Positions 1 to 12,503 of a DNA stretch of 64,000 bases are shown here, in pieces. The position numbers were made by a program, and so were the translations under genes. The DNA lies in NCBI GenBank assembly GCA_947165355.1, contig CAMUZZ010000001.1:2067-66066 (forward strand). Reading direction: 5' to 3'. The stretch is from an uncultured Clostridium sp. (lineage in GTDB: Bacteria; Bacillota; Clostridia; TANB77; CAG-508). The notes beneath the pieces are model-generated. The model did not search any database, was not told where the DNA came from, and was given only the letters and a program-made list of their open reading frames with translations. Numbering within the stretch: the first letter of the stretch is position 1; every line of letters starts with the position of its first letter.

Positions 1-215
1 TTTTTAATTATTTGTTGCCATAAAATTGCATATACTCCTAAAATAGCAATCTCTATTCCATAGAATAAAAAGAATTTAAAACTAAAAAATTCTTGTCCCG
101 AGGCAAACTTTGCAGCAACCGTTGAGAGCGTGTATATTGCTATAATTACCTGCAGTATTACAATATTTTTAATTAAATTTTTATTTAATTGAAATTTCGT
201 TTTTTCATTATTCAT
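1..215 (-). CDS. Partial small polytopic membrane protein (DMT/EamA-like, ArnE/ArnF-like?). Not in the supplied ORF track; hand translation, runs off the window start.
   Basis: Minus-strand frame open from 215 to the window edge (MNNEKTKFQLNKNLIKNIVILQVIIAIYTLSTVAAKFASGQEFFSFKFFLFYGIEIAILGVYAILWQQIIK...). Its ATG lies inside the ATP-grasp stop region (ATGAATAA overlap, suggesting translational coupling). Hydrophobic helices. Confidence 0.4.
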   Translation of the reverse strand, partial: MNNEKTKFQLNKNLIKNIVILQVIIAIYTLSTVAAKFASGQEFFSFKFFLFYGIEIAILGVYAILWQQIIK

Positions 216-1359
216 TACTAAATAACCACCCTATTTTGTTAAAGTCGTTTGTACTTAAAATATAAAATCCAAATCTTGAAGAGCTATCTATAACCTTATG
301 AGAGTCAACGTTTTCTATTTTGCTAGCCCTGTATATACATTCAGGAATTTCAGCTTTTGCTCTATCATACATGTTTACATCATCTTGATTAAAAATAAAT
401 TTTATTGCAGCAATTTTGGGCTCCGTTACTTTTTCAAAAACAGGCTCTTTTCCCATTGCAACATCAATTACCATTTTAACAAAGTCATATCCAGTTGAAA
501 TTTGAACCAAGTCTGATCCAATGCAATCTCCACCCATTCTAGCACCAATTTCTATAACTCTTACTTCTCCTTCTGGAGTGATTTTAAACTCTGAATGAGT
601 AGCACCATTTGTTATATCTAGTGCATTTAAAGCTTTTTCTAATTCGAAAAATATTTTTTCTCTCATTTCATCAGAAATAAAAGCAGGTTCTATGTGTCCT
701 GTTTCAATAAAGTTCGGCGCTCCTGTTGTTCGTTTTTCTGTTACAGTCAAAAATTTATGTTTTCCTTTAAACGAGATTCCTTCTGCACTGTATTCTTTTC
801 CATCAATATACTCTTCAACAATAGCACTATTTTCAAATGAATCTTTTTGAGCTCTTGATATTGCATCACTTAACTCATTTATGTTTGTAATTTTTGTAAT
901 AGATCTGCTACCCGATCTATCTGTTGGTTTTACAATTAATGGAAATTTCATATTGCTTATATCACTTATATTAAAGTTGTTATTTTCTGATACTTTTATA
1001 AACTTTATGGTTGGAACTCCACCATTTAACAAAGCTTCCCTCATTGCATATTTGTTTGTTGCTTTTTTGCAGCATGCTATTGAATTACCTGGAAGGTTCA
1101 TATTTTCTGCAACATATGTAACTGTTACAGTTGCTAAATCTGATGCAATTGTTGTTATTCCATCAATACCTATTTCTTTACACTTTTCTAAGATTTGATC
1201 TTTTTCCACAATGCTAATTGGATAGAAAAAATCTGCTGTTTTCTCTCCAATGCTTCCATCTTGCCAGGCAAAAACGTGAGTTTCGTAACCTAGCTCTTTA
1301 GCCTTAAGTATAAGTGGATTTTGAAATTCGTTAGCTCCAATTATTGCAATTTTTTTCAC
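208..1359 (-). CDS. ATP-grasp domain ligase (carboxylate-amine ligase family)
   Basis: 383-aa ORF with N-terminal Rossmann-like pre-ATP-grasp region and central ATP-grasp fold pattern. Co-directional with and tightly linked to the aminotransferase. Confidence 0.7.
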   Translation of the reverse strand: MKKIAIIGANEFQNPLILKAKELGYETHVFAWQDGSIGEKTADFFYPISIVEKDQILEKCKEIGIDGITTIASDLATVTVTYVAENMNLPGNSIACCKKATNKYAMREALLNGGVPTIKFIKVSENNNFNISDISNMKFPLIVKPTDRSGSRSITKITNINELSDAISRAQKDSFENSAIVEEYIDGKEYSAEGISFKGKHKFLTVTEKRTTGAPNFIETGHIEPAFISDEMREKIFFELEKALNALDITNGATHSEFKITPEGEVRVIEIGARMGGDCIGSDLVQISTGYDFVKMVIDVAMGKEPVFEKVTEPKIAAIKFIFNQDDVNMYDRAKAEIPECIYRASKIENVDSHKVIDSSSRFGFYILSTNDFNKIGWLFSNE

Positions 1360-1425
1360 AATTAATTATTTCCTTTCCGCTCTGTTGTTAAATCACAACA
1401 TAAATTAAGTGTAATCCTTTTGAAA

Positions 1426-2556
1426 TTACACTTTATAAAATTCTTTTATTTTACTTACAACATATTTTACATCATCTTCTGCTATATTGTAATACATTGG
1501 TAAACGTAATAAACGTTCACTTTCTTTGGTTGTATACTTATCTTCTCCATGAAATCTTCCATACTTTAAGCCTGCAGGAGCTGTATGAAGTGGAATGTAA
1601 TGGAATACAGCTTGTACACCATTTTCTTTTAAATATGCAATTAATTTTGTTCTTTCATCCAAATCTTTAGCTTTTATGTAATACATATGCGCATTATGTT
1701 CACATTCTGCTGGTATAACAGGTCTTTCAATGAACCCTTTTTCTTCTAGCTCCTTTAAGCCATCATTATATATATTCCATGCACGTAATCTATTGTTATT
1801 AATTTCATCTGCCATTTCAAGTTCTGGCCATAAATAAGCAGCGTTTATGTCGCTTGGTAAAAATGATGATCCACATTCTACCCACGTATATTTATCAACT
1901 TGTCCTCTAAAAAACTTACTTCTGTTAGTTCCTTTTTCTCTTATTATTTCTGCATCTTCAACATAATTATTGTCTTTAAAAACTATTGCTCCACCTTCAC
2001 CCATACTGTAGTTTTTGGTTTCGTGGAAACTATAGCATCCAATATCTCCTATTGTTCCAAGATATTGATTTTTATATTTTGCCATAACCCCTTGAGCTGC
2101 ATCTTCTACAACTTTTAAGTTATGCTTTCTAGCTATTTCATTTATTGCATCCATTTCACAAGCCACACCAGCATAATGCACAGGAACTATGGCTTTTGTC
2201 TTTTCTGTAATTGCATCTTCTATTAATTTTTCATCTATGTTCATTGTGTCTGGTCTAATATCAACAAAAACAATTTTAGCACCACGAAGTACAAATGCAT
2301 TTGCTGTTGAAACAAATGTGTATGGTGACATTATAACTTCATCACCTGGCTGTATATCTAATAAAATAGCTGCCATTTCTAGAGCTGAAGTTCCAGATGT
2401 AGTTAACAAAACTTTACTTGCATTAAATTTTTGTTCCATAAAATTACTACATTTTTTTGTAAACTCACCATCTCCACATATTTTATGATTTCGTATAGCT
2501 TCTGTTACATATTTTTCTTCGTTTCCCACCATTGGCGGAATATTAAAACCTATCAT
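1426..2556 (-). CDS. DegT/DnrJ/EryC1/StrS-family PLP-dependent sugar aminotransferase (ArnB-like)
   Basis: Family-typical sequence throughout the 388-aa ORF. Start probably the internal Met (MIGFNIPP...) at 2556, preceded by AAGGAAG; ORF-track start is 2592. Confidence 0.85.
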   Translation of the reverse strand: MIGFNIPPMVGNEEKYVTEAIRNHKICGDGEFTKKCSNFMEQKFNASKVLLTTSGTSALEMAAILLDIQPGDEVIMSPYTFVSTANAFVLRGAKIVFVDIRPDTMNIDEKLIEDAITEKTKAIVPVHYAGVACEMDAINEIARKHNLKVVEDAAQGVMAKYKNQYLGTIGDIGCYSFHETKNYSMGEGGAIVFKDNNYVEDAEIIREKGTNRSKFFRGQVDKYTWVECGSSFLPSDINAAYLWPELEMADEINNNRLRAWNIYNDGLKELEEKGFIERPVIPAECEHNAHMYYIKAKDLDERTKLIAYLKENGVQAVFHYIPLHTAPAGLKYGRFHGEDKYTTKESERLLRLPMYYNIAEDDVKYVVSKIKEFYKV

Positions 2557-2578
2557 TTTGTAAAACTTCCTTTTCTGT

Positions 2579-3919
2579 TTATATATAAGCAAAAATTAAT
2601 GTTTTCATGCTAATAATTAAAACAAAGCATAACACACTAATTATTGACACTTTTAAAACTGTTTGAATTTGTTGTTTTTTAATTATTCTTTCTATAATGC
2701 ACTGTAGTCCAACTGTTACAAAATACATAAGTGGAACAAGCATTGGCATTATGTATCTTCCTTGTGGTTGATAATCGCTTGTGTATGAGTAGTAGATACT
2801 TAATAATAGTGGAATAATAGCATCTATTATTAGCACTATTTGTAATAAATTAATTCTTTTTTCCTTGTTTTCAGTTTTATCTTTCTTTGATATGAATAAT
2901 TGAATTAAAAATCCTAATAAGCCTATTAAAATAATAGCTAAAGCCATTACACAAACGTATTTTGGAATTGGCACACTCATACCACCAAAAACACCAACAA
3001 AACTGTGTAAAGTAGTAACTATCCATCCTCTGTTTATTAGCATTGTTGTAAGCGACATTCCCTCTCTTTGCGGAGTAGTTCTATTTTTTGCTTTATACTC
3101 TTCTATAGCATATTTGTTTGAGTATTCGTCGGTTGTGCTCAATCCTAAAAAATCGCCATCGTAAATAATTGCGCTTCTTATGAACCACCATCCAGCTATT
3201 AGAAATACCACTCCCGAAACAACTAAACCTTTTTTTATTATTTCTTTTATTGATATTTTATTTTTAAGCTGTGATGCTATAAACAATATAATACTGGTTA
3301 GTATGTAACCATATGCATTGTAGTATGAAATAGCACAGAGCCCAATAGAAACTCCCAGTTTAATACATGTTTTGTAGCTCCATCCGTTTTTATACCCAAT
3401 AATTCCATAATAAATAATCATTGATATTGTCATCATTGCAAAACAATCGTTATTTAAATATGAACCTAGGTATATCATTTGTGGTAACAAAGATGTAAGC
3501 CCTATAAACAATATCTTAAAGTACTTATTTTTGAATAATTCTTTTGCTATTTTTATATTAAACAGTATAAAAATTCCATAACATATTACACTAACTAATC
3601 TTGCAGCAACATAATATGCATGCAAATCTTGAGTAAAATTACTTGTTATTTTTATAAATATTCCTGAAAAAATATATGGTGTTATTGGTGTAAAACCATA
3701 CGAAATTCCCCATGTATGATCAAGAACTGCTTCGTCTCCACCGTGTGGAAGTGTACCATAATTGGCTACATATTTACATATATCTAATTTCATTAATTCG
3801 TCTGGGCCAGTATTACTTGGCTGTATTACTGCAACAAAAGTAGCAAAAATTACACAAATAAATATAAATGAAAAAACTAAAAATTTTTCATTTATTTTCC
3901 CTTTTATAGACTTAATCAA
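2579..3919 (-). CDS. GT-C fold glycosyltransferase (PMT_2/ArnT-like, family 39-like), polytopic membrane protein
   Basis: 446 aa, at least 10 predicted TM helices, DE motif in the first periplasmic loop (TGPDELMK). Confidence 0.65.
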   Translation of the reverse strand: MIKSIKGKINEKFLVFSFIFICVIFATFVAVIQPSNTGPDELMKLDICKYVANYGTLPHGGDEAVLDHTWGISYGFTPITPYIFSGIFIKITSNFTQDLHAYYVAARLVSVICYGIFILFNIKIAKELFKNKYFKILFIGLTSLLPQMIYLGSYLNNDCFAMMTISMIIYYGIIGYKNGWSYKTCIKLGVSIGLCAISYYNAYGYILTSIILFIASQLKNKISIKEIIKKGLVVSGVVFLIAGWWFIRSAIIYDGDFLGLSTTDEYSNKYAIEEYKAKNRTTPQREGMSLTTMLINRGWIVTTLHSFVGVFGGMSVPIPKYVCVMALAIILIGLLGFLIQLFISKKDKTENKEKRINLLQIVLIIDAIIPLLLSIYYSYTSDYQPQGRYIMPMLVPLMYFVTVGLQCIIERIIKKQQIQTVLKVSIISVLCFVLIISMKTLIFAYI

Positions 3920-4110
3920 TTAATTCACCTTCATCCTTACGTTTCCTAAATTCTATCATAGTGCTATAAAAAATACAATGATTACAAACTAAGATTTGCT
4001 AAATATGCTGAAAAATTTAATATTTTGTGATATACTGTAGCAGATAGTTTAAAAAGATGTTATGATTATAAAAAGTTTTATTTTAAACTTTGTGGAAAGG
4101 ATTTATAAAA

Positions 4111-5043
4111 ATGAAAAAAGTATCTATAATTGTACCTGTATACTTTAACGAAGAAAATTTGCTTTCTTTGTATGCAGACTTAAAAGAAAAAGTTTTAAAT
4201 AAATTGCCATCATACAATTTAGCTTATGAAATTGTATTTGTTGATGATGGCTCAAAAGATAATTCTTACAACATATTAAAAGATATTGCAAAACTAGACG
4301 AAAATATAGTTTTATTAAAATTATCTAGAAACTTTGGAGAACATGCTGCTTTATTAGCAGGGCTTACAAAATGTACAGGAGATTTCGCGGTTCGTAAGGC
4401 AGCCGACCTACAAGAGCCTTCAGAATTAATTTTAAAAATGATTGATAAATACAATGAAGGAAACAACGTTGTTATAGCTACTCGTGCAGACAGAGAAGAA
4501 CCATTTATTCAAAAAGCTCTTAGTGGTTTATATGCTTCAATTATGCAAAAAATGGCATTACACAATATGCCCAAAGGTGGATTTGACAGTTTTTTAATTG
4601 ACAGACAAGTTATAGATGTTTTGGTTAAAATGCAAGAAAAAAATACATCTCTTATGAGCCAAATATTATGGAGTGGTTTTAAAACTGGATCTGTTTCATA
4701 CACAAGATTAAAAAGACAAGCAGGAAAATCTAGATGGACTCTATCTAAAAAAATAAAATTAGCTATCGACTCTATTTTAAGCTTTTCATACTTTCCAGTA
4801 CGCTTTATTTCAGTAATTGGAATACTTTCATCTCTAGGAGCTTTAATTACGTCAATAGTAATAATATGCTTAAAATTAGCTGATGTAATAGACGTTGAAG
4901 GATATACTTCAATTATCCTTTTAATATTATTCTGCTTTGGAGTTGTTATGTTCTCTTTAGGAGTTCTTGGAGAATACATTTGGAGAGCATTTGATGCATC
5001 AAGAAAAAGACCTCCATTTATTGTTGAAGAAGACCATAAATAA
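4111..5043 (+). CDS. GT2 polyprenyl-phosphate sugar transferase (ArnC/GtrB/DPM1-like)
   Basis: SIIVPVYFNEE, VFVDDGSKDNS, LSRNFGEHAA, DLQEP motifs; two C-terminal TM helices. ATG at 4111 preceded by GGAAAGGA (track start 4090 is TTG). Confidence 0.85.
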   Translation: MKKVSIIVPVYFNEENLLSLYADLKEKVLNKLPSYNLAYEIVFVDDGSKDNSYNILKDIAKLDENIVLLKLSRNFGEHAALLAGLTKCTGDFAVRKAADLQEPSELILKMIDKYNEGNNVVIATRADREEPFIQKALSGLYASIMQKMALHNMPKGGFDSFLIDRQVIDVLVKMQEKNTSLMSQILWSGFKTGSVSYTRLKRQAGKSRWTLSKKIKLAIDSILSFSYFPVRFISVIGILSSLGALITSIVIICLKLADVIDVEGYTSIILLILFCFGVVMFSLGVLGEYIWRAFDASRKRPPFIVEEDHK

Positions 5044-5093
5044 ATGATTCACAAAATTGAATTGCCACTAAAACCTTATACTAATACAACAAA

Positions 5094-5130
5094 AAGAAGC
5101 GTAAAAAAATAATTTCCGCTTCTTTTTATT
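5094..5130. terminator. Bidirectional rho-independent terminator between convergent genes
   Basis: AAGAAGCG ... CGCTTCTT stem followed by TTTTTATT; A-run on the other side. Confidence 0.6.
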
Positions 5131-5161
5131 ATTCTTTAATTTCTATTATACTTCGATATTT

Positions 5162-5753
5162 CTAACTATTTGCACCATACAGCTTTTCATAAATACCATA
5201 GTCTCTTATAATTTTTCTAACATAGTTATTTGTTTCTTTGTATGGAATATTTTCTATATCTGATCCATCTTCTTTTATAATTCCTTCAGCTATCCACCTA
5301 TCAACATTTCCTATTCCTGCATTATATGCAGCAATTGCCATATATAAATTTCCGGTCATATTTATCAATTAACTCAGATAAATACTTTATGCCAATTTGT
5401 ATATTGGTTTTGGCATCAAACAACATACTGCTTTCGTATGATTCAATAAAAATACTTTTTTCAGATATTTCTCTTGCAGTTGAATCCATTACTTGCATCA
5501 ATCCTTTAGCATCGCTTTTGGATGTAACGCCACAATTAAAATTGCTTTCAACTTTTATTACAGCATACACCAAAAGTTCATCAACATCGTATTCTTCTGC
5601 ATAATATTCAACATATTCAGCGTATTTTTTTGGATAGATTTTTTTCATTAGTACATTTGGTAAATTAAAAATATTTATAACGATTACTAGTATTAATACA
5701 CTAACTATAGCTATACACATAGCTTTGGTTAATTTTTTCATTAATGCTATCAT
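5162..5753 (-). pseudogene. Soluble lytic transglycosylase (SLT domain) split by a frameshift near 5354-5357
   Basis: Upstream ORF carries the ES...GLMQV catalytic motif; downstream ORF in another frame carries AYNAGIGNVDRW. Junction ...ELIDKYD | GNLYMAIAAYNAG implies a 1-nt indel. Confidence 0.6.
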
Positions 5754-5802
5754 CCTTTCTTTTGTGTATAAAATTATTATTCATCTTCTAAACGATGGAG
5801 TA

Positions 5803-8514
5803 TTATTTTACATCATACCACGTCTTTGCAACCTCAGTTTCAACCTGAAGTGGTATTGATAATTGTATTGCATTTTCCATACAGTTTTTCAACAATTTTT
5901 GCACTTCTTCACTATCAGATTCTTTGCATTCTAGTATAAGCTCATCGTGTACCTGAAGTACAATTTTTGCATCATAATTTGTTTTGTTAAGCTCTTTATA
6001 CAAGTTTACCATTGCAATTTTCATTATGTCTGCTGCAGTTCCTTGAATAGGAGTATTCATTGCAGCTCTAGCACCAAATTGTCTAACCATATAATTATTA
6101 GAGCTTAGCTCCGGTATATATCTTCTTCTGTGGAATAAAGTTTCTACATAGCCCTTTTCTTTTGCATCTTCCACCACATTTTTCATAAACTGATCTATAC
6201 CACTATACTTTTCTAAGTATTGGTCTATATAATTCTTAGCTGCTTTTTTGGTTATTCCTAACTGCTCAGCAAGTCCAAAATCACTTATTCCATACACTAT
6301 TCCAAAGTTTACTGCTTTAGCTGAGCTTCTTTGCTCTTTTGTAACTTCTTCTATTGGAATTCCTAGTACTCTTGATGCAGCTTGCTTGTGAATGTCTTCC
6401 CCATTTCTAAATGCGTGTAGCATGTTTTCGTCTTGTGAAATATGCGCTAAAACTCTTAGCTCTATTTGAGAATAATCGGCATCTATGTATACATAGCCCT
6501 CTTTTGGTTTAAATACTTTTCTTACTTGCTTTCCAAGCTCTATTCTCGTTGGGATGTTTTGTAAATTTGGCTCTGTACTACTAATTCTTCCGGTTGCAGT
6601 TATTGTTTGATGGAAACAAGAGTGAATTCTTCCAGTTTTTGAATTGATACATGGAATTAAACCTTCAATGTATGTAGAATTAAGCTTTGTTAAGCTTCTG
6701 TATTCAAGTATTTTTTCTATTATAGGATGCTTATTCTTTAATTTTTCCAATATATCAACATCAGTTGAATATCCTGTTTTTGTTTTCTTGTAAACAGGTA
6801 ACTGCAATTTTTCAAATAATATTTTACCAAGTTGTTGCGTTGAGTTTATGTTAAAATCTTCTCCAGCCATTTCGTGAATTTCTGAAGTTAAAACCTCTAA
6901 GTTTTTCTTTAACTCTTCACCTATAGTTTCAAGCTCAGATTTATCTGCATACATACCTGCAACTTGCATTTCTGCAAGTATTTCCAATAGTGGCATTTCG
7001 ATGTTATAGAATAAATCTTCACTATTATATTCTTTAATTTTTGCCATCATCTTTTCGTATAAACTTCCAATAACGTATGCAAAAACTGATGATTCATATT
7101 TTTCATCATCGCTTTCTTGCACTGCATCAAAAAAGTTTATTTGTCCACTAACAGTTTCCTTTGATTCATTCTGATTTTCTATAAATTCATTAACATCAAT
7201 GCTTAAATATTCCATTGCCAAATCGCTTAAATTATATTTGTTTCCAGGGTTTATAATATAAGCTGCAATTTCCGCATCAAAATATATATTGTTTGGTTTT
7301 ATTCCTAGTTCCTTTAGTAGTACATAATCTTCATTTAGTTTAAAACCAAATTTTTTTATATTTTCGTCTTCAAATACTTCTTTAAAATAATTAGTAAATT
7401 CACTATTATTTAGCTTTAGGTAATAAACTTCCTTGCTTTGTTTGTTGTATATACAAATAGATTTGATTGATTTTTTTATTATATTTTGACTTTCTTTTTC
7501 ATCTTTTTTGTATATATAAAAAACTAATTCTTGGCTTTCTTTAATTGATTTTATTATATCATTAGCACTTTTATCCTCCACCAAAGAAAATAAATCTTTA
7601 ATATCTTTTTGCTCTTCCGTGCCTGTAAGTGCAAATCTATCTATAAATCTATTAAAGTTTAGCTCTTTAAACTTTTCGTATACAGCTCCATTATCCCATT
7701 CTTGTTTCTTTAAATCATCTATGGTAACTTCATCAAATGGAACCTCCAAGTTTATTCTTCCTAAATCTCTTGAAAGATATGCTAAATCTTTATTTGCTAG
7801 TAAGTTTTCTTTTAGCTTTCCTTTTATTGATGCTGCTTCATCGTTTTCAAGAAGTTTGTATAAATTGTCTATATCTTTGTACTCTTCAATTAATTTGTAC
7901 GCCGTTTTTTCACCTACACCTGGCACTCCAGGAATATTGTCTGATGAATCTCCCATCAAACCTTTTACTTCAATTAATTGTTTTGGACAAACATTATATG
8001 TTTCAATAACCTTTGCTTCGTTAAAGTCTTCTTCCTCTGTTTTGCCAGCTTTTGTACGTGGTATTCTTATTGTTACATTGTTTGTTGCAAGCTGAAATGT
8101 ATCTCTATCTCCTGAAAGAATAAAAACATTAAGTCCTGCCTCTTCTCCTCTTTTTGAAAAAGTACCTAGAATGTCATCACCCTCGTACCCCTGCTTTTCT
8201 ATTATTTTTATATTCATTTTATTTAATATATCTTTTATTATTGGCATTTGCGCTGCTAGTTCATTTGGCATTCCTTTACGATTTGCCTTGTAACCTTCAT
8301 ACATTTCGTGTCTTGCCGTTGGACCTTTTAGGTCGAAGGTAATTGCCATGTAATCTGGTTTTAAGTCTTCACAAACTTTAAACATTATAGCTAAAAATCC
8401 ATAAACAGCGTTTGTATACGTACCATCTTTGGTAGTAAGCATTTTACTGCTCATTATTCCATAAAAAGCTCTATTCATAATGCTATTTCCGTCAATTAAT
8501 AATAAATTACTCAT
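5803..8514 (-). CDS. polA: DNA polymerase I
   Basis: 5'-3' exonuclease N-terminus, 3'-5' exo and Pol A family palm motifs (DYSQIELR, QVHDEL). Start probably MSNLLLIDG at 8514, preceded by GAGAGGA. Confidence 0.95.
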   Translation of the reverse strand: MSNLLLIDGNSIMNRAFYGIMSSKMLTTKDGTYTNAVYGFLAIMFKVCEDLKPDYMAITFDLKGPTARHEMYEGYKANRKGMPNELAAQMPIIKDILNKMNIKIIEKQGYEGDDILGTFSKRGEEAGLNVFILSGDRDTFQLATNNVTIRIPRTKAGKTEEEDFNEAKVIETYNVCPKQLIEVKGLMGDSSDNIPGVPGVGEKTAYKLIEEYKDIDNLYKLLENDEAASIKGKLKENLLANKDLAYLSRDLGRINLEVPFDEVTIDDLKKQEWDNGAVYEKFKELNFNRFIDRFALTGTEEQKDIKDLFSLVEDKSANDIIKSIKESQELVFYIYKKDEKESQNIIKKSIKSICIYNKQSKEVYYLKLNNSEFTNYFKEVFEDENIKKFGFKLNEDYVLLKELGIKPNNIYFDAEIAAYIINPGNKYNLSDLAMEYLSIDVNEFIENQNESKETVSGQINFFDAVQESDDEKYESSVFAYVIGSLYEKMMAKIKEYNSEDLFYNIEMPLLEILAEMQVAGMYADKSELETIGEELKKNLEVLTSEIHEMAGEDFNINSTQQLGKILFEKLQLPVYKKTKTGYSTDVDILEKLKNKHPIIEKILEYRSLTKLNSTYIEGLIPCINSKTGRIHSCFHQTITATGRISSTEPNLQNIPTRIELGKQVRKVFKPKEGYVYIDADYSQIELRVLAHISQDENMLHAFRNGEDIHKQAASRVLGIPIEEVTKEQRSSAKAVNFGIVYGISDFGLAEQLGITKKAAKNYIDQYLEKYSGIDQFMKNVVEDAKEKGYVETLFHRRRYIPELSSNNYMVRQFGARAAMNTPIQGTAADIMKIAMVNLYKELNKTNYDAKIVLQVHDELILECKESDSEEVQKLLKNCMENAIQLSIPLQVETEVAKTWYDVK

Positions 8515-8672
8515 ATTCTTCATCCTCTCAGTTATGTTTTTTATTTTATTATTAATACGTTGAATTATCAATATTTTTATTTAAATTTACAAACAATTTA
8601 CAATATATTTTGCGTCAAATAATTATTTTATTAGCATACTTTTTACTGCAAAAGAATTAAATATAGAAATAA

Positions 8673-8700
8673 CCCTGCAGATAAAACCTGCAGGGCTTTT
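8673..8700. terminator. Hairpin terminator (CCCTGCAG / CTGCAGGG)
   Basis: Perfect 8-bp GC-rich stem with T-runs on both sides, downstream of the 8703..10067 gene. Confidence 0.55.
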
Positions 8701-8702
8701 GG

Positions 8703-10067
8703 CTATTTGAACAAATTGTTTGCTCCGCCAATAGATGAAATATAAGCTTCGGTTGCCTTTCCAATATTTTTAACCGTGTCCGCATGACCTTTTTTAATTG
8801 TATAATCCTGGGTAATTACTACAAGCAGATATTGTCCATCTACTATAGCACAATCAGCTGCTGACGTATAGTTTCCATCAGACCACCCAGACTTATGCAA
8901 ATAGGTATGCTTACCCGACATCCACATTGTAATGTAGCAGTATAACGTGTTTTTCAAATAAGTTTCTAATGATTTGGCATACTTTGCACTACTGTTAATG
9001 TAGTTCCAAATGTACAACCATTCATGATACCGCTGCATTACTGTTGCAGACCCGTATTGAAGATATGCAACTGATCCATCAGAAGTTTGGTACGCTAAGT
9101 TTGCACCTCCAATTTTAGCAAGCCAGTTATTAAACTTTTCGAGCCTTTTAGTTGTAGCAGTTTCTGGAGAAAACCTTCTAACCAGGATATTGTATCCTGT
9201 GTTATCGCTATGGTACAACAAAACTCTTAATATTTCGGCAATTGAATATTCAGAACCTATTGGATCATTCTTAATAACTCCACTTCCTGTATTTTTATCA
9301 GCTTTAGTGTAAGTTAATTTTTCTGACCAAATACTAATTCCTTGTGCCTCGCATTCTTCTAGTACAAAGCAAGCAAATGCTGCTTTAACTGTGCATGCGC
9401 TTGAAATAAGTTTGTTTTCGTTGTACACATATCCGTTTTTTCCATCAAGAGAAAATAATCCAACGCCAATTACAATATTTGGATATTTTTTCTTCTCGCT
9501 CTCTACCACTTGCATTATTTTTTGAGGTAACGCCTTAGTTGTTATGCCAGGAGCAATATTACCTGTTGAAATGCTTGTTGTAGTAGCTTTTGTTGTTGCT
9601 ACAGTAGAAGCTGTAGTTACTGCTGATGTAAGCTTTGAAGTTACTGCAGACTCAGATGGCAAAGTTGCCAACGAGTTTTGTAAACTGCTTGATGTTTGCG
9701 ATTGAAAATTTGATGTTTTACTTTCAGTACTTGCTATTATTTGCGCGCTCGTACCTATAGCCATCGTACTTGTTACTTCTGCCTGTGTTGTCACTTTTTC
9801 TGTGACTTCTGTTGTTGAAATTGCAGTGCTGCTGGTTGATTTTTGGATTGTACTTGTACCGTATGTTTGCATGTTTTGTGTGGTGCTTGATTCAATTTGA
9901 TTTATTACCATTACATCGTTTGGATCATAAACCAAAAGCTCTCCAGAGCCATCCCGTAAGGAACGTTGCTGAATAGTAGCTAAAACAAGAAGTACCACGG
10001 TAATTAACCATAAACTTGCGGTAAAAAATAAAATCCACATTATTCGCCGTTTCAACTTTGCTTTCAT
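8703..10067 (-). CDS. Membrane-anchored class A beta-lactamase-fold protein with a long Ser/Thr-rich linker. CTVK where STFK is expected.
   Basis: N-terminal TM, about 120-aa S/T-rich low-complexity region, then SDN (YHSDNTG) and KSG (HKSGW) motifs at class A spacing. The first motif reads SSACTVK. Confidence 0.6.
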   Translation of the reverse strand: MKAKLKRRIMWILFFTASLWLITVVLLVLATIQQRSLRDGSGELLVYDPNDVMVINQIESSTTQNMQTYGTSTIQKSTSSTAISTTEVTEKVTTQAEVTSTMAIGTSAQIIASTESKTSNFQSQTSSSLQNSLATLPSESAVTSKLTSAVTTASTVATTKATTTSISTGNIAPGITTKALPQKIMQVVESEKKKYPNIVIGVGLFSLDGKNGYVYNENKLISSACTVKAAFACFVLEECEAQGISIWSEKLTYTKADKNTGSGVIKNDPIGSEYSIAEILRVLLYHSDNTGYNILVRRFSPETATTKRLEKFNNWLAKIGGANLAYQTSDGSVAYLQYGSATVMQRYHEWLYIWNYINSSAKYAKSLETYLKNTLYCYITMWMSGKHTYLHKSGWSDGNYTSAADCAIVDGQYLLVVITQDYTIKKGHADTVKNIGKATEAYISSIGGANNLFK

Positions 10068-10220
10068 TTTTATATTTCACTCCTTTATTATTTTTAAGGT
10101 ATGCACCTTAGACATATATTATAGCACAAAAAAAGCATTAAGTCTATAAATGAATCTTTTTACATTACAATACCTTCTAAAAATTTTAAAAGGTTTTATT
10201 TTGTAACCCAATAAAAAAAA

Positions 10221-10256
10221 TAAAACCAATAGAGACATCTCTATTGGTTTTTATAT
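10221..10256. terminator. Rho-independent terminator downstream of the TasA-like gene
   Basis: AAAACCAATAGAGA / TCTCTATTGGTTTT hairpin flanked by A and T runs. Confidence 0.6.
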
Positions 10257-10273
10257 TTAGTTATTATTATCTA

Positions 10274-10900
10274 TTAAAATTCTGCCCATACATCAGCTGG
10301 AGCGTCTGAAGCTAATCCGTTTGCTTGGATACCATATCCTGTTACATCTATGTCTAATGAAACATTGTTAGTTGTTATTGCTGTTGCAGAAGCATCATTA
10401 ATTTCGATAAATGTTACGTCATCGAATACAGTAGCTGCACCATTTACTGCTAATGGTGCCATAGCCCCATTACCATCTGTATATGCGAAAACATGTGTTT
10501 TTTTATGATTTGTTGAATCTACAGCTGCTGTTCCAACTTCAACCCAACCATTATTTAAAGTGTATGTGAATAACTCTTGATCATGTGCTGGAGTACTATT
10601 AGCTTCCTCAGCTACAGTTTGAACTGAGTAATAAGGAATAGATACTTGAACAAATACAAATGCATCATCATTTCCTGCATTTGTTATTGTTGGGTCCTTA
10701 TCTACAGTTTCACCTGGCATTATTGTTTTTCCATCTTGAGCATAATCCCAGTTAGGCTCCGTTAACGTTATATCTACATTTCCTAATGTAAATACGTTTG
10801 TTGTAGTACTTGTAATGTCTGTAAAGTATGCAAATATTCCTCCTATTAGTAACAACACTAAAAGAACTACTGCTAATAAAGTAATCTTATTTTTCTTCAT
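10274..10900 (-). CDS. TasA/camelysin-family secreted protein (SipW-cognate signal peptide type)
   Basis: MKKNKITLLAVVLLVLLLIGGIFAYFTDITSTTTNVFT... has the AYFTD signature. Start at 10900 after GGGAGAG; the ORF-track N-terminal extension is probably not translated. Confidence 0.7.
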   Translation of the reverse strand: MKKNKITLLAVVLLVLLLIGGIFAYFTDITSTTTNVFTLGNVDITLTEPNWDYAQDGKTIMPGETVDKDPTITNAGNDDAFVFVQVSIPYYSVQTVAEEANSTPAHDQELFTYTLNNGWVEVGTAAVDSTNHKKTHVFAYTDGNGAMAPLAVNGAATVFDDVTFIEINDASATAITTNNVSLDIDVTGYGIQANGLASDAPADVWAEF

Positions 10901-11195
10901 ATGTTCTCTCTCCCTTTCTTTTGTGCAAAAGCTTATATTTACGCTTTTTATAAGCTTTTCACCTTGTTTTACGTAAATTTCTTTACCTATTATCAATAAA
11001 ATAATACCATAACGATTTTTTTAAGTCAACAATAAAAAACAAATTTTTTATTCCTTTTTTTACAAAAATTTTTAAAATGCTTTATATCATTTCGTTTATT
11101 GAATTCAAAATTTTTATTTTTTTTTATTTTTCTTTCAAATACACAGAAAATATATTATAATATCAAAAAATGTTATGTTAAAGAAGGATTAAAAT

Positions 11196-12503
11196 ATGAA
11201 AATAACAAAATACGAAACATGTGAAAGCAAAAATATATACTTAAAAGTATCAAAACAAAAACATAAACGCTTTAAACCATCAATTGAATTTGAGGTAATT
11301 AACTTGTACCCAAATATTACCTATCAAAAATTCTATGGTATTGGCGGAGCAATAACTGAAGCCGCAGCATACAACTATAGCCTTCTTTCAGAAGATAAGA
11401 AAAAACAATTTATAAAAGATTATTTTGGAAATATAAATTATTCCCTATGTAGGCTAACTATTGGAAGTTGCGACTTTTCACTAAGTTATTACAACTACAC
11501 AAATACCAAAGATTTATCCGATTTTGATATGTCTAGAGATGAAAAATATATTATTCCATTCATAAAAGACGCTTTGGAAGTTAATCCAAACTTAAAATTT
11601 TTAGCTTCTCCTTGGAGTCCACCAAAATTTATGAAGAATAATAAAAGAAGTATTTTAGGAGGAAAGTTAGCTAAAAAATACAGACAAATATATAGTAATT
11701 TTTTAGTAAAATATATAAAAACCTACGAAGAACACGGAATAAAAATAGACTACATTACTATTCAAAACGAAACAAGTGCAAGACAGCTTTGGGAATCTTG
11801 TATTTACACAGCTAAAGATGAGGCTACATTTTTGTCAGACTACCTATACCCTACTTTTAAAAATAATGGTATTACCACAAAAATACTGGTTCATGATCAT
11901 AATAAAGACAATATATTTAACAGAGCATGCTCTATTTTTGAAAATTCTAATGCAGAGCAAGCTGCTTCTGGAATAGCTTTTCATTGGTACACAGGAAGCC
12001 ATTTTGAAAACATTGCTCTTTGCAGAGCTAAATTTCCAAATATGCTTTTATTTCATACAGAAGGTTGCTGTGGTTATTCAAATAATCACACCGAAGATGC
12101 ATACCAATACGCAATTGATATGATAGAAGATTTTAATAATGGAACTAATGCATATATAGATTGGAATATTTTGCTAAATAGCAAAGGTGGTCCACATCAT
12201 GTTATAAACCCATGCAACAGTCCAGTTATGCTTAATAATGATAGCACTGATTATATAAAAAATTTGCCATATTATTATATAGGGCATTTTTCAAAACTAA
12301 TAAAACCAGGGGCTGTTAGAATTGCATACAGTAAGTACACTCAAAACATTCATATGACTGCTTTTAAAAATACTGATAACAGTATTGCTGTTGTAATCTT
12401 AAATGCGAATACTTACGATATAAACTATAGAGTTTGCTTTGATAAAACAACTTTCAAAGATACGATAGCAGGAAAATCTATGATAAGCTATTTGATAAAG
12501 TAA
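11196..12503 (+). CDS. Glycoside hydrolase family 30-like (O-glycosyl hydrolase)
   Basis: 435-aa TIM-barrel GH30-like sequence; good RBS (AAGAAGGA). Confidence 0.7.
   Translation: MKITKYETCESKNIYLKVSKQKHKRFKPSIEFEVINLYPNITYQKFYGIGGAITEAAAYNYSLLSEDKKKQFIKDYFGNINYSLCRLTIGSCDFSLSYYNYTNTKDLSDFDMSRDEKYIIPFIKDALEVNPNLKFLASPWSPPKFMKNNKRSILGGKLAKKYRQIYSNFLVKYIKTYEEHGIKIDYITIQNETSARQLWESCIYTAKDEATFLSDYLYPTFKNNGITTKILVHDHNKDNIFNRACSIFENSNAEQAASGIAFHWYTGSHFENIALCRAKFPNMLLFHTEGCCGYSNNHTEDAYQYAIDMIEDFNNGTNAYIDWNILLNSKGGPHHVINPCNSPVMLNNDSTDYIKNLPYYYIGHFSKLIKPGAVRIAYSKYTQNIHMTAFKNTDNSIAVVILNANTYDINYRVCFDKTTFKDTIAGKSMISYLIK

Follow-up and report, generated by a model that had tools for sequence, protein, structure and literature searches.

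What does an ATP-grasp ligase do in a set of genes that otherwise looks suited to placing an amino sugar on a lipid carrier, which sugar would such a set deliver, and to what acceptor? The question is raised by the first 5,043 nucleotides of a 64,000-nucleotide stretch of DNA (the whole of which is hereafter called the window) from an uncultured Clostridium sp. (contig CAMUZZ010000001.1). A preliminary description, made from the letters of the window, had read this region as a cassette modelled on the Arn pathway of 4-amino-4-deoxy-L-arabinose (Ara4N) synthesis, with an added ATP-grasp enzyme that would acylate the amino sugar. Our analysis agrees with that description in treating the genes as one functional module, made up of a sugar aminotransferase, an ATP-grasp enzyme, a GtrB/ArnC-type family 2 glycosyltransferase (GT2), a small DMT/SMR-like flippase and a GT-C glycosyltransferase. 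We consider it probable that this module carries out a three-component, undecaprenyl-phosphate-dependent decoration of the envelope from the outside, and that the sugar donor is an N-acylated 4-amino-4,6-dideoxyhexose.

The region 1-5043 contains four complete genes and the 5' part of a fifth:

1-215, minus strand: EamA1 (5' part), the first 71 codons of a 126-residue, four-helix EamA/SMR-like, ArnE-like protein
208-1359, minus strand: predicted ATP-grasp ligase, 383 residues (Pfam ATP-grasp_4, 85 bits against a cut-off of 27)
1426-2556, minus strand: WecE-type aminotransferase, 376 residues (Pfam DegT_DnrJ_EryC1, 306 bits)
2579-3919, minus strand: predicted GT-C membrane protein, 446 residues (Pfam DUF2142, 51 bits against 30)
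3920-4110, no strand: divergent intergenic region, separating the GT-C operon from the GT2 gene
4111-5043, plus strand: GT2, 310 residues (Pfam Glycos_transf_2, 86 bits)

With a G+C content of 30% in the window, stop codons are frequent, yet the open reading frames (ORFs) of this region are long. All five frames are real and lie at or near the positions first proposed for them, and the Pfam matches of the four complete genes all exceed the gathering scores. This includes the frame at 1-215, which had been read by hand and proved to be a true gene, the complete 126-residue version being present on an identical contig, L001.

The aminotransferase and the predicted sugar

The aminotransferase scored well above both NCBIfam models of WecE (NF008687, 636 bits against a cut-off of 375; TIGR02379, 637 bits against 435) and failed the ArnB model (NF008658, 193 bits, cut-off 631). 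Its best match among solved structures was Escherichia coli WecE (PDB 4PIW, E-value 1e-162), with 64.7% identity over 374 columns, and the motif FHETKNY, which holds the lysine for pyridoxal phosphate, is kept. This strong orthology points to a WecE and not an ArnB. Assignment to the amino-acid aminotransferases, which the preliminary description had named as the finding that would speak against it, was rejected: the enzyme groups with the nucleotide-sugar aminotransferases.

In eight related loci the module itself includes genes for RmlA and RmlB, which score above the respective equivalog cut-offs (RmlA 458-461 bits, cut-off 361; RmlB 482-499 bits, cut-off 365). Together with the WecE orthology, this suggests that the sugar is a deoxythymidine diphosphate (dTDP)-linked 4-amino-4,6-dideoxyhexose of the 4-amino-4-deoxyfucose (Fuc4N) type, not Ara4N. 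The predicted product is thus dTDP-4-amino-4,6-dideoxyhexose, for which a galacto or gluco configuration is presumed. The earlier analogy with ArnB and its sugar has to be given up in view of these model scores, of the RmlA and RmlB genes in related loci, and of the absence of ArnA and ArnD described below.

The ATP-grasp ligase

Conservation of the module was assessed by clustering the neighbouring ORFs of 81 related loci from other species. The ATP-grasp gene adjoins WecE in 74 of 78 loci, and in a Roseburia metagenome-assembled genome the two are joined in a single WecE::ATP-grasp protein of 764 residues. A database search with this protein retrieved at least 25 clusters of WecE/ATP-grasp fusions (a further search against representatives yielded family sizes and few fusions), and domain mapping revealed both possible orders, WecE followed by ATP-grasp (P0241-P0249, P0295) and ATP-grasp followed by WecE (P0250-P0257, P0260-P0265, P0269). 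That both orders occur suggests that the fusions arose more than once and are not artefacts of read-through.

Elsewhere, the WecE family is fused to N-acyltransferases of the GNAT or hexapeptide-repeat type, to WecF (P0320 and P0322, outside the module) and to GtrA/EamA membrane proteins. Since its partners elsewhere include N-acyltransferases, the ATP-grasp enzyme appears to fill the slot of the enzyme that N-acylates the 4-amino group. The module encodes no acyl-CoA N-acyltransferase or formyltransferase. In-frame ATP-grasp::EamA1 fusions, in at least four clusters (P0101, P0102, P0104, P0109) and at locus L008, further tie the ligase to the flippase. The original suggestion that this enzyme acylates an amino sugar is strongly reinforced by its adjacency to WecE and by the fusions in both orders.

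All NCBIfam matches of the ligase were below their cut-offs, the best being to PRK02186, BacD (77 bits against 850), DdaF (54 bits against 840) and Ddl, with PurT at 30 bits, and the protein does not qualify as one of the dipeptide-ligase equivalogs. Sequence matches in the PDB were to the structural-genomics protein 4DIM, the L-amino-acid ligase 3VOT (5e-28) and BacD, and BL00235 and BacD are the L-amino-acid ligases nearest by sequence. The AlphaFold model (predicted local distance difference test, pLDDT, 85) was matched best in Foldseek by L-amino-acid ligases, namely 3VOT (E-value 7e-32, template modelling (TM) score 0.83), YwfE/BacD and RizA. PurK, PurT and biotin carboxylases ranked next (E-values of ~1e-21), with TM scores of 0.72-0.79 for the PurT/PurK type. 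There is no hydrophobic segment, and the protein is soluble.

Sequence and model thus agree on a predicted carboxylate-amine ligase of the L-amino-acid-ligase type. By analogy, the enzyme may form an acyl phosphate from a carboxylate and link it as an amide to the 4-amino group of dTDP-Fuc4N. Its resemblance to the L-amino-acid ligases makes an L-amino acid the most likely carboxylate. Some related loci (L078, L054, L066, L082 and, from Bacteroides finegoldii, L085) contain two ATP-grasp genes, in tandem or close to each other, which may correspond to two acyl or aminoacyl groups added sequentially.

The predicted delivery machinery

The GT2 aligned end to end with its best NCBIfam models, Streptococcus mutans PgfS (203 bits, cut-off 500) and ArnC (163 bits, cut-off 529), and has two C-terminal transmembrane helices (residues 235-253 and 268-286). 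It is predicted to be an undecaprenyl-phosphate sugar synthase of the GtrB/ArnC/PgfS type.

The small membrane proteins are two, EamA1 and EamA2, the second encoded beyond the window edge, and each has about four hydrophobic helices. The pair matched ArnE (E-value 2.9e-7) and ArnF (4.5e-5) best in NCBIfam, both below cut-off, with 31 bits against 92 for ArnE and 24 against 99 for ArnF. Against the Pfam EamA family (cut-off 28.2) EamA1 scored 28.1 and EamA2 35 bits. These similarities suggest an ArnE/ArnF-like, two-subunit flippase. The flippase candidate of the preliminary description is upheld by the ArnE and ArnF matches, but it is one member of a pair, and half of one subunit was all that had been in view.

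The GT-C protein carries D40 and E41 in its first external loop, invariant among 28 homologues, and these homologues also match Pfam PMT_2 and PMT. Its AlphaFold model (pLDDT 90) had GT-C-fold membrane proteins as its 42 best Foldseek matches in the PDB, nearly all of them glycosyltransferases and including AglB/STT3, ArnT (5F15), DPY19, Pmt4, ALG9 and Emb/Aft. The label "ArnT/PMT-like" first given to this protein therefore fits as to fold, with ArnT itself among the structural matches, but not as to family, the Pfam match being DUF2142 rather than PMT_2 or ArnT. We predict a polytopic glycosyltransferase that moves the sugar from undecaprenyl phosphate to an acceptor at the outer face. All three architectural features of three-component polyprenyl-phosphate glycosylation are present: an anchored GT2, a small flippase candidate, and a GT-C protein with an acidic motif.

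Genes beyond the window edge and the possible acceptor

The protein sequence of the ATP-grasp ligase is identical on three metagenome contigs, of which L001 (41.9 kb) reaches 10 kb past coordinate 1 of the window. L001 carries the complete EamA1 gene (L001:11145-11525, 126 residues) and, overlapping it, the EamA2 gene (L001:11509-11847, 112 residues). The window edge thus truncates the module: EamA2 is encoded past coordinate 1, and so is an ABC-transporter-type glycan locus. Past EamA2 come two GT2 genes, an ABC-2 permease gene (Wzm/TagG-like) and the gene of an ATPase with a Wzt_C domain (TagH/Wzt-like), then genes for a 481-residue protein, a 625-residue double-GT2 protein and a large DUF7657/DUF7654 protein. 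The 481-residue protein (L001:16318-17763), encoded directly after Wzt, had no Pfam or NCBIfam match and has a coiled-coil-like C-terminus; a role in setting the chain length of an ABC-transporter-dependent polymer, or in terminating it, is possible.

The Arn analogy had called for a look upstream of coordinate 1 for an ArnA-like gene, and none is there: the genes of window positions 1-9000 and of the 10-kb L001 flank include no ArnA-like dehydrogenase, decarboxylase or formyltransferase and no ArnD-like deformylase or deacetylase. The concern that the upstream genes might assign the cluster to an unrelated capsule locus was likewise dismissed, as the adjoining genes form an ABC-transporter-dependent glycopolymer locus, a plausible source of the acceptor.

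Wzm, Wzt (with its Wzt_C domain) and several GT2 genes adjoin the module both on L001 and in the closest relative (L004), which makes the exported glycopolymer the most economical acceptor, and most plausibly the acceptor here is the glycopolymer of this Wzm/Wzt locus. The sugar could instead be passed to extracytoplasmic, Ser/Thr-rich disordered regions of membrane-anchored proteins, in a protein O-glycosylation like that of streptococcal GtrB/PgtC2 and Pgf; in streptococci, glycosylation of such regions by GtrB and a GT-C protein is established (PMC12041528). That PgfS is the best NCBIfam match of the GT2, that the invariant DE motif of the GT-C protein is PMT-like and its relatives match PMT and PMT_2, that a gene 3.6 kb off (8703-10067) specifies a protein whose linker is long and rich in Ser/Thr, and that the module in most species lies away from a polysaccharide locus all fit this alternative. 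We lean against it, though not firmly. Wzm/Wzt and several GT2 genes stand immediately beside the module in the window organism and in its closest relative, and the GT-C protein is short, without an extracellular domain, like the Gtr-type GT-C proteins that modify polysaccharides. It also gave no match to the PgfM1 or PgfM2 models, and DUF2142 proteins are typical of cell-wall polysaccharide loci, recurring in those of lactococci and streptococci (PMC9746298, PMC12599335).

The gene at window positions 8703-10067 (minus strand) encodes 454 residues with an N-terminal membrane anchor, a low-complexity Ser/Thr-rich linker of ~130 residues and a Beta-lactamase2 domain. By analogy with the streptococcal targets, its product is a possible alternative acceptor for the module.

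Proposed pathway and alternatives

In the pathway that we favour, RmlA and RmlB, encoded elsewhere in the genome, would make dTDP-4-keto-6-deoxy-D-glucose, which WecE (1426-2556), given its strong orthology, would transaminate to dTDP-Fuc4N. The ATP-grasp enzyme (208-1359) would then activate a carboxylate and amide-link it to the 4-amino group, as synteny, gene fusions and fold suggest. In the synthesis of enterobacterial common antigen (ECA), acylation by WecD makes the reversible transamination irreversible, and the ArnA formyltransferase does the same in the Arn pathway; acylation by the ATP-grasp enzyme would take their place here and draw the transamination forward. From family and architecture, the GT2 (4111-5043) would load the acylated sugar onto undecaprenyl phosphate, the EamA1/EamA2 pair would flip the lipid-linked sugar across the membrane, and the GT-C protein (2579-3919) would hand it to an extramembrane acceptor.

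Several points weigh against this pathway. No biochemical or genetic test of any member of the module was found, and we infer every step past WecE. We know of no GT2 of the GtrB/ArnC type that uses a dTDP-sugar; the known members take sugars activated with uridine diphosphate (UDP) or guanosine diphosphate (GDP). The ATP-grasp enzyme lies below every NCBIfam equivalog cut-off, so that its substrate cannot be read from family membership. A search of the 64-kb window and the 21-kb L001 locus gave no hit to RmlA, RmlB or the module-specific short-chain dehydrogenases/reductases (SDRs), which would place the precursor genes elsewhere in the genome. In most related species the module is not beside a Wzm/Wzt locus, and the acceptor may thus differ or be encoded elsewhere. 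Finally, ~22 related loci have an extra GalE-like SDR, of two module-specific subfamilies, so that the sugar chemistry is possibly more elaborate than proposed. These extended SDRs are encoded between or beside WecE and ATP-grasp (e.g., L057:8965-9981, L046:11126-12118), and the window has none. In the PDB they are matched best by UDP-glucose 4-epimerases. They are distinct from RmlB, on whose model they score 80 bits (cut-off 365), and L025 has a true RmlB besides.

Within the literature library searched, no paper links an ATP-grasp enzyme with Fuc4N, 4-amino-4-deoxyquinovose (Qui4N), viosamine, WecE or three-component systems, and public annotations are generic even for distant relatives of the ligase.

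The alternatives differ from the favoured pathway in the sugar, in the part played by the ligase, or in the order of the steps. A literal Arn pathway, with Ara4N made from UDP-glucuronic acid, could draw on the named matches of the GT2, with ArnC near the top, on those of the small membrane proteins, with ArnE/ArnF near the top, and on ArnT being among the structural matches of the GT-C protein. All of these Arn matches are far under the equivalog cut-offs, however, and as far as the sugar is concerned the pathway is refuted: the aminotransferase, a WecE orthologue, failed the ArnB model, ArnA and ArnD homologues are absent from window and flank, and it is RmlA and RmlB, not Ugd and ArnA, that accompany the module in related loci. 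We give this reading practically no credence. Hardly more credible is mere co-location of the ATP-grasp gene, for example as a dipeptide or cell-wall peptide ligase; its nearest characterised relatives do make dipeptides, but chance vicinity agrees poorly with a neighbour kept in nearly all loci across many genomic contexts, and with fusions to WecE in both orders and to a flippase subunit.

Two further readings, both improbable though less remote, keep the ligase in the pathway. It could attach a small carboxylate other than an amino acid, such as acetate, a hydroxy acid, or formate by PurT-like formyl-phosphate chemistry, and so yield a neutral N-acyl sugar. PurT/PurK-type enzymes are significant structural neighbours as well, N-formylation would mirror the ArnA step, and the failure of the ligase at all equivalog cut-offs leaves room for such a substrate. 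The L-amino-acid ligases are nonetheless clearly better matches, both by sequence (BacD and DdaF over PurT, and 3VOT in the PDB) and by structure (7e-32 against 1e-21), and window and L001 flank hold no deformylase that could make a transient formyl group useful.

The order of steps could also differ, with the GT2 moving un-acylated Fuc4N to undecaprenyl phosphate and the ATP-grasp enzyme acylating the lipid-linked sugar at the inner face before flipping. The in-frame fusions of the ligase to EamA1, and the 8-nucleotide overlap of the two genes in the window, would suit such an arrangement. WecE/ATP-grasp fusions are far commoner, though, and their occurrence in both orders argues for coupling at the stage of the soluble nucleotide sugar. 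WecE, too, is fused to EamA/GtrA proteins (P0293, P0312, P0308, P0349), so that a flippase partner is no marker of the final step in the cytoplasm, and the ligase has no hydrophobic segment. This order therefore seems to us unlikely, and acylation of the dTDP-sugar before lipid transfer remains the reading that we prefer.

Relation to known systems

Three-component systems decorate O antigens, teichoic acids and rhamnopolysaccharides after export; examples are GtrA/GtrB/GtrV in Shigella and Salmonella, CsbB/GtcA/YfhO and GtlA/GtlB in Bacillus and Listeria, GacI-L in Streptococcus pyogenes, and the pentofuranose systems of Citrobacter (PMC11127046, PMC5836110, PMC7389260). The module shares with them a GT2 with C-terminal transmembrane helices that is predicted to charge polyprenyl phosphate, a small flippase for the lipid-linked sugar, a GT-C protein that acts after export, and the clustering of the genes, which here adjoin an ABC-transporter glycan locus. 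It differs in its predicted donor, a dTDP-derived N-acylated 4-amino-6-deoxyhexose instead of glucose, N-acetylglucosamine, galactose or a pentofuranose, in having two built-in sugar-tailoring enzymes (WecE and the ATP-grasp enzyme), and in its flippase, which is predicted to be a heterodimeric EamA pair and not GtrA/GtcA.

With the Arn system (PmrHFIJKLM) the module shares a logic, in which an aminotransferase acts on a 4-keto sugar nucleotide, the new amine is N-acylated, an ArnC-like GT2 moves the sugar onto undecaprenyl phosphate, an ArnE/ArnF-like four-helix pair flips it, and a GT-C protein makes the final transfer. The components differ: WecE with RmlA/RmlB stands against ArnB with Ugd/ArnA, acylation by an ATP-grasp enzyme against an N10-formyl-tetrahydrofolate-dependent formyltransferase, and a DUF2142 GT-C protein against ArnT (GT83), and there is no ArnD deformylase. 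The ArnB, ArnC, ArnE and ArnF cut-offs were all failed and the GT-C protein matched no ArnT model, which places the module outside the Arn family. Lipid A would moreover be impossible as the acceptor if the organism is a monoderm member of the Clostridia, as its closest relatives suggest.

ECA synthesis has in common with the module an orthologue-level WecE (65% identity) and N-acylation of the amine at the dTDP-sugar stage. The acyl donor differs, being ATP-activated here and acetyl-CoA in ECA synthesis, as does the fate of the sugar, which would go to undecaprenyl phosphate as a single-sugar donor, whereas in ECA it joins a repeat unit linked to undecaprenyl pyrophosphate. No WecD, WecF, WzxE or WzyE was found in the window region or the L001 flank, and the module is thus not an ECA system.

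The L-amino-acid ligases (BL00235, BacD/YwfE, RizA), finally, share the three-domain ATP-grasp fold and the ATP-binding motifs with the module enzyme, with TM scores of up to 0.83. They are set apart by an identity of 18-24%, by equivalog thresholds that it does not reach, and by its context of sugar enzymes and fusions, the proposed nucleophile being an amino sugar nucleotide rather than a second amino acid. O antigens provide a chemical precedent for amino acids bound to amino sugars through an amide (PMC7685785).

Distribution of the module

In a scan of one genome per species for relatives of the ATP-grasp ligase, 308 species encoded one. Nearly all of the best 80 of these 308 are Clostridia of the gut or rumen (uncultured Clostridia, Lachnospiraceae, Roseburia and others), and the closest relative at species level has an ATP-grasp protein 79% identical to that of the window. 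The 80 include the cultured species Roseburia amylophila, Hominiventricola filiformis, Laedolimicola intestinihominis and Anaerosacchariphilus hominis.

Among the 81 related loci, the ATP-grasp gene was present in 78, WecE in 74, the GT2 in 68, EamA2 in 67, EamA1 in 66, the DUF2142 GT-C gene in 44 and an SDR in 28; loci without DUF2142 usually have another GT-C gene, YfhO-type or PgfM2-like. The flanks vary widely (uvrA, holB, pyruvate kinase, asnB and others), and such differing housekeeping neighbours suggest that the module is a self-contained cassette. Wzm/Wzt adjacency is confined to the closest relatives and a few other loci.

A few loci carry non-Clostridia labels (L063, Prevotella sp. 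CAG:279; L065, Thermoguttaceae; L079, Saccharibacteria), and in both the order and the lengths of its genes L065 matches the Roseburia amylophila locus L057. Mis-binning or contamination is a more probable source of these labels than true distribution.

In a plasmid collection, the ATP-grasp relatives were distant (at most 44% identity) and generically named. Two of them, in B. finegoldii (L085, NZ_OY725904.1) and on an Enterococcus hirae plasmid (L084, NZ_CP068121.1), with 35-44% identity, belong to polysaccharide loci of other phyla that also encode a DegT aminotransferase and an NAD(P)-dependent oxidoreductase, all generically annotated, which suggests that the pairing of DegT and ATP-grasp reaches beyond Clostridia. 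Carriage by phages, as for the Gtr genes of serotype-converting phages, was rejected, the ATP-grasp ligase having no match among 50,697 phage records.

Gene order, junctions and flanking genes

On the minus strand the order of transcription is GT-C, DegT aminotransferase, ATP-grasp and small membrane protein, and the GT2 gene is divergent. The GT-C and WecE genes are separated by 22 nucleotides, WecE and ATP-grasp by 66, and ATP-grasp and EamA1 overlap by 8. This spacing is operon-like, as first described, and the overlap bears the description out, although two of the gaps are wider than the "few nucleotides" that it gave.

The ORF of the aminotransferase spans 1426-2592, with its conserved start at ATG 2556, in agreement with the gene call on L001. 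That of the GT2 spans 4090-5043, with ATG 4111, preceded by GGAAAGGA, as the probable start. The TTG start of the GT-C gene has AGGTGA 6 nucleotides upstream.

The intergenic region 3920-4110 presumably holds promoters for both the GT-C operon and the GT2 gene, and a TG-extended -10-like site lies within it at 4008-4036. In a promoter and terminator scan of positions 1-6000, promoter-like sites were fewer than in shuffled controls, the candidate promoters thus not rising above chance, and one weak terminator was found, inside the GT2 gene. An Rfam scan of positions 1-12000 gave one chance microRNA match and no riboswitch or leader.

At its other end the module stops with the GT2 gene; next come a gene for a lytic transglycosylase (SLT) and polA. 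The SLT gene (5162-5753, minus strand) is broken into ORFs of 143 and 68 residues, apparently by one extra C in GACCGG near 5352. The split recurs on the independent contigs L001 and L002, and the closest relative (L004) has an intact gene of 202 residues. From the sequences, this appears to be either a real pseudogene in the population or a shared assembly error.

Significance

The delivery route proposed here is well known; the sugar branch that feeds it, WecE with an ATP-grasp enzyme, is uncharacterised and widespread in gut Clostridia. It is tempting to go further and suppose that the ATP-grasp enzyme loads an alpha-amino acid with a free amino group onto Fuc4N. Wall polymers in hundreds of gut Clostridia species would then carry an aminoacyl-6-deoxyhexose of cationic or zwitterionic character, and its addition would be the monoderm counterpart to that of Ara4N or to D-alanylation. 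Among polyprenyl-phosphate GT2 enzymes, this one would be the first known to take its sugar from a dTDP-linked donor. We offer this extended version tentatively, as possible but on the doubtful side. A 2025 review of the glycans of gut commensals counts 24 monosaccharides, with no 4-amino-4,6-dideoxyhexose among them (PMC12413058).

With four cultured carrier species, the hypothesis is directly testable. Should it be true, a large family now named "ATP-grasp domain-containing protein" would acquire a function, the N-acylation of an amino sugar nucleotide at the expense of ATP, and three-component systems would gain a further class of sugar along with a dTDP-linked donor. Amines and zwitterionic motifs at the surface bear on resistance to cationic peptides, on phage receptors and on the modulation of host immunity. 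An aminoacyl-6-deoxyhexose could accordingly affect resistance to antimicrobial peptides, phage adsorption and immune recognition, and effects of the module on surface charge, phage adsorption and peptide resistance are, at this stage, speculation. For the abundant and poorly studied gut Clostridia that carry it, such as Roseburia and other Lachnospiraceae, the module would predict a surface residue that has so far gone undescribed.

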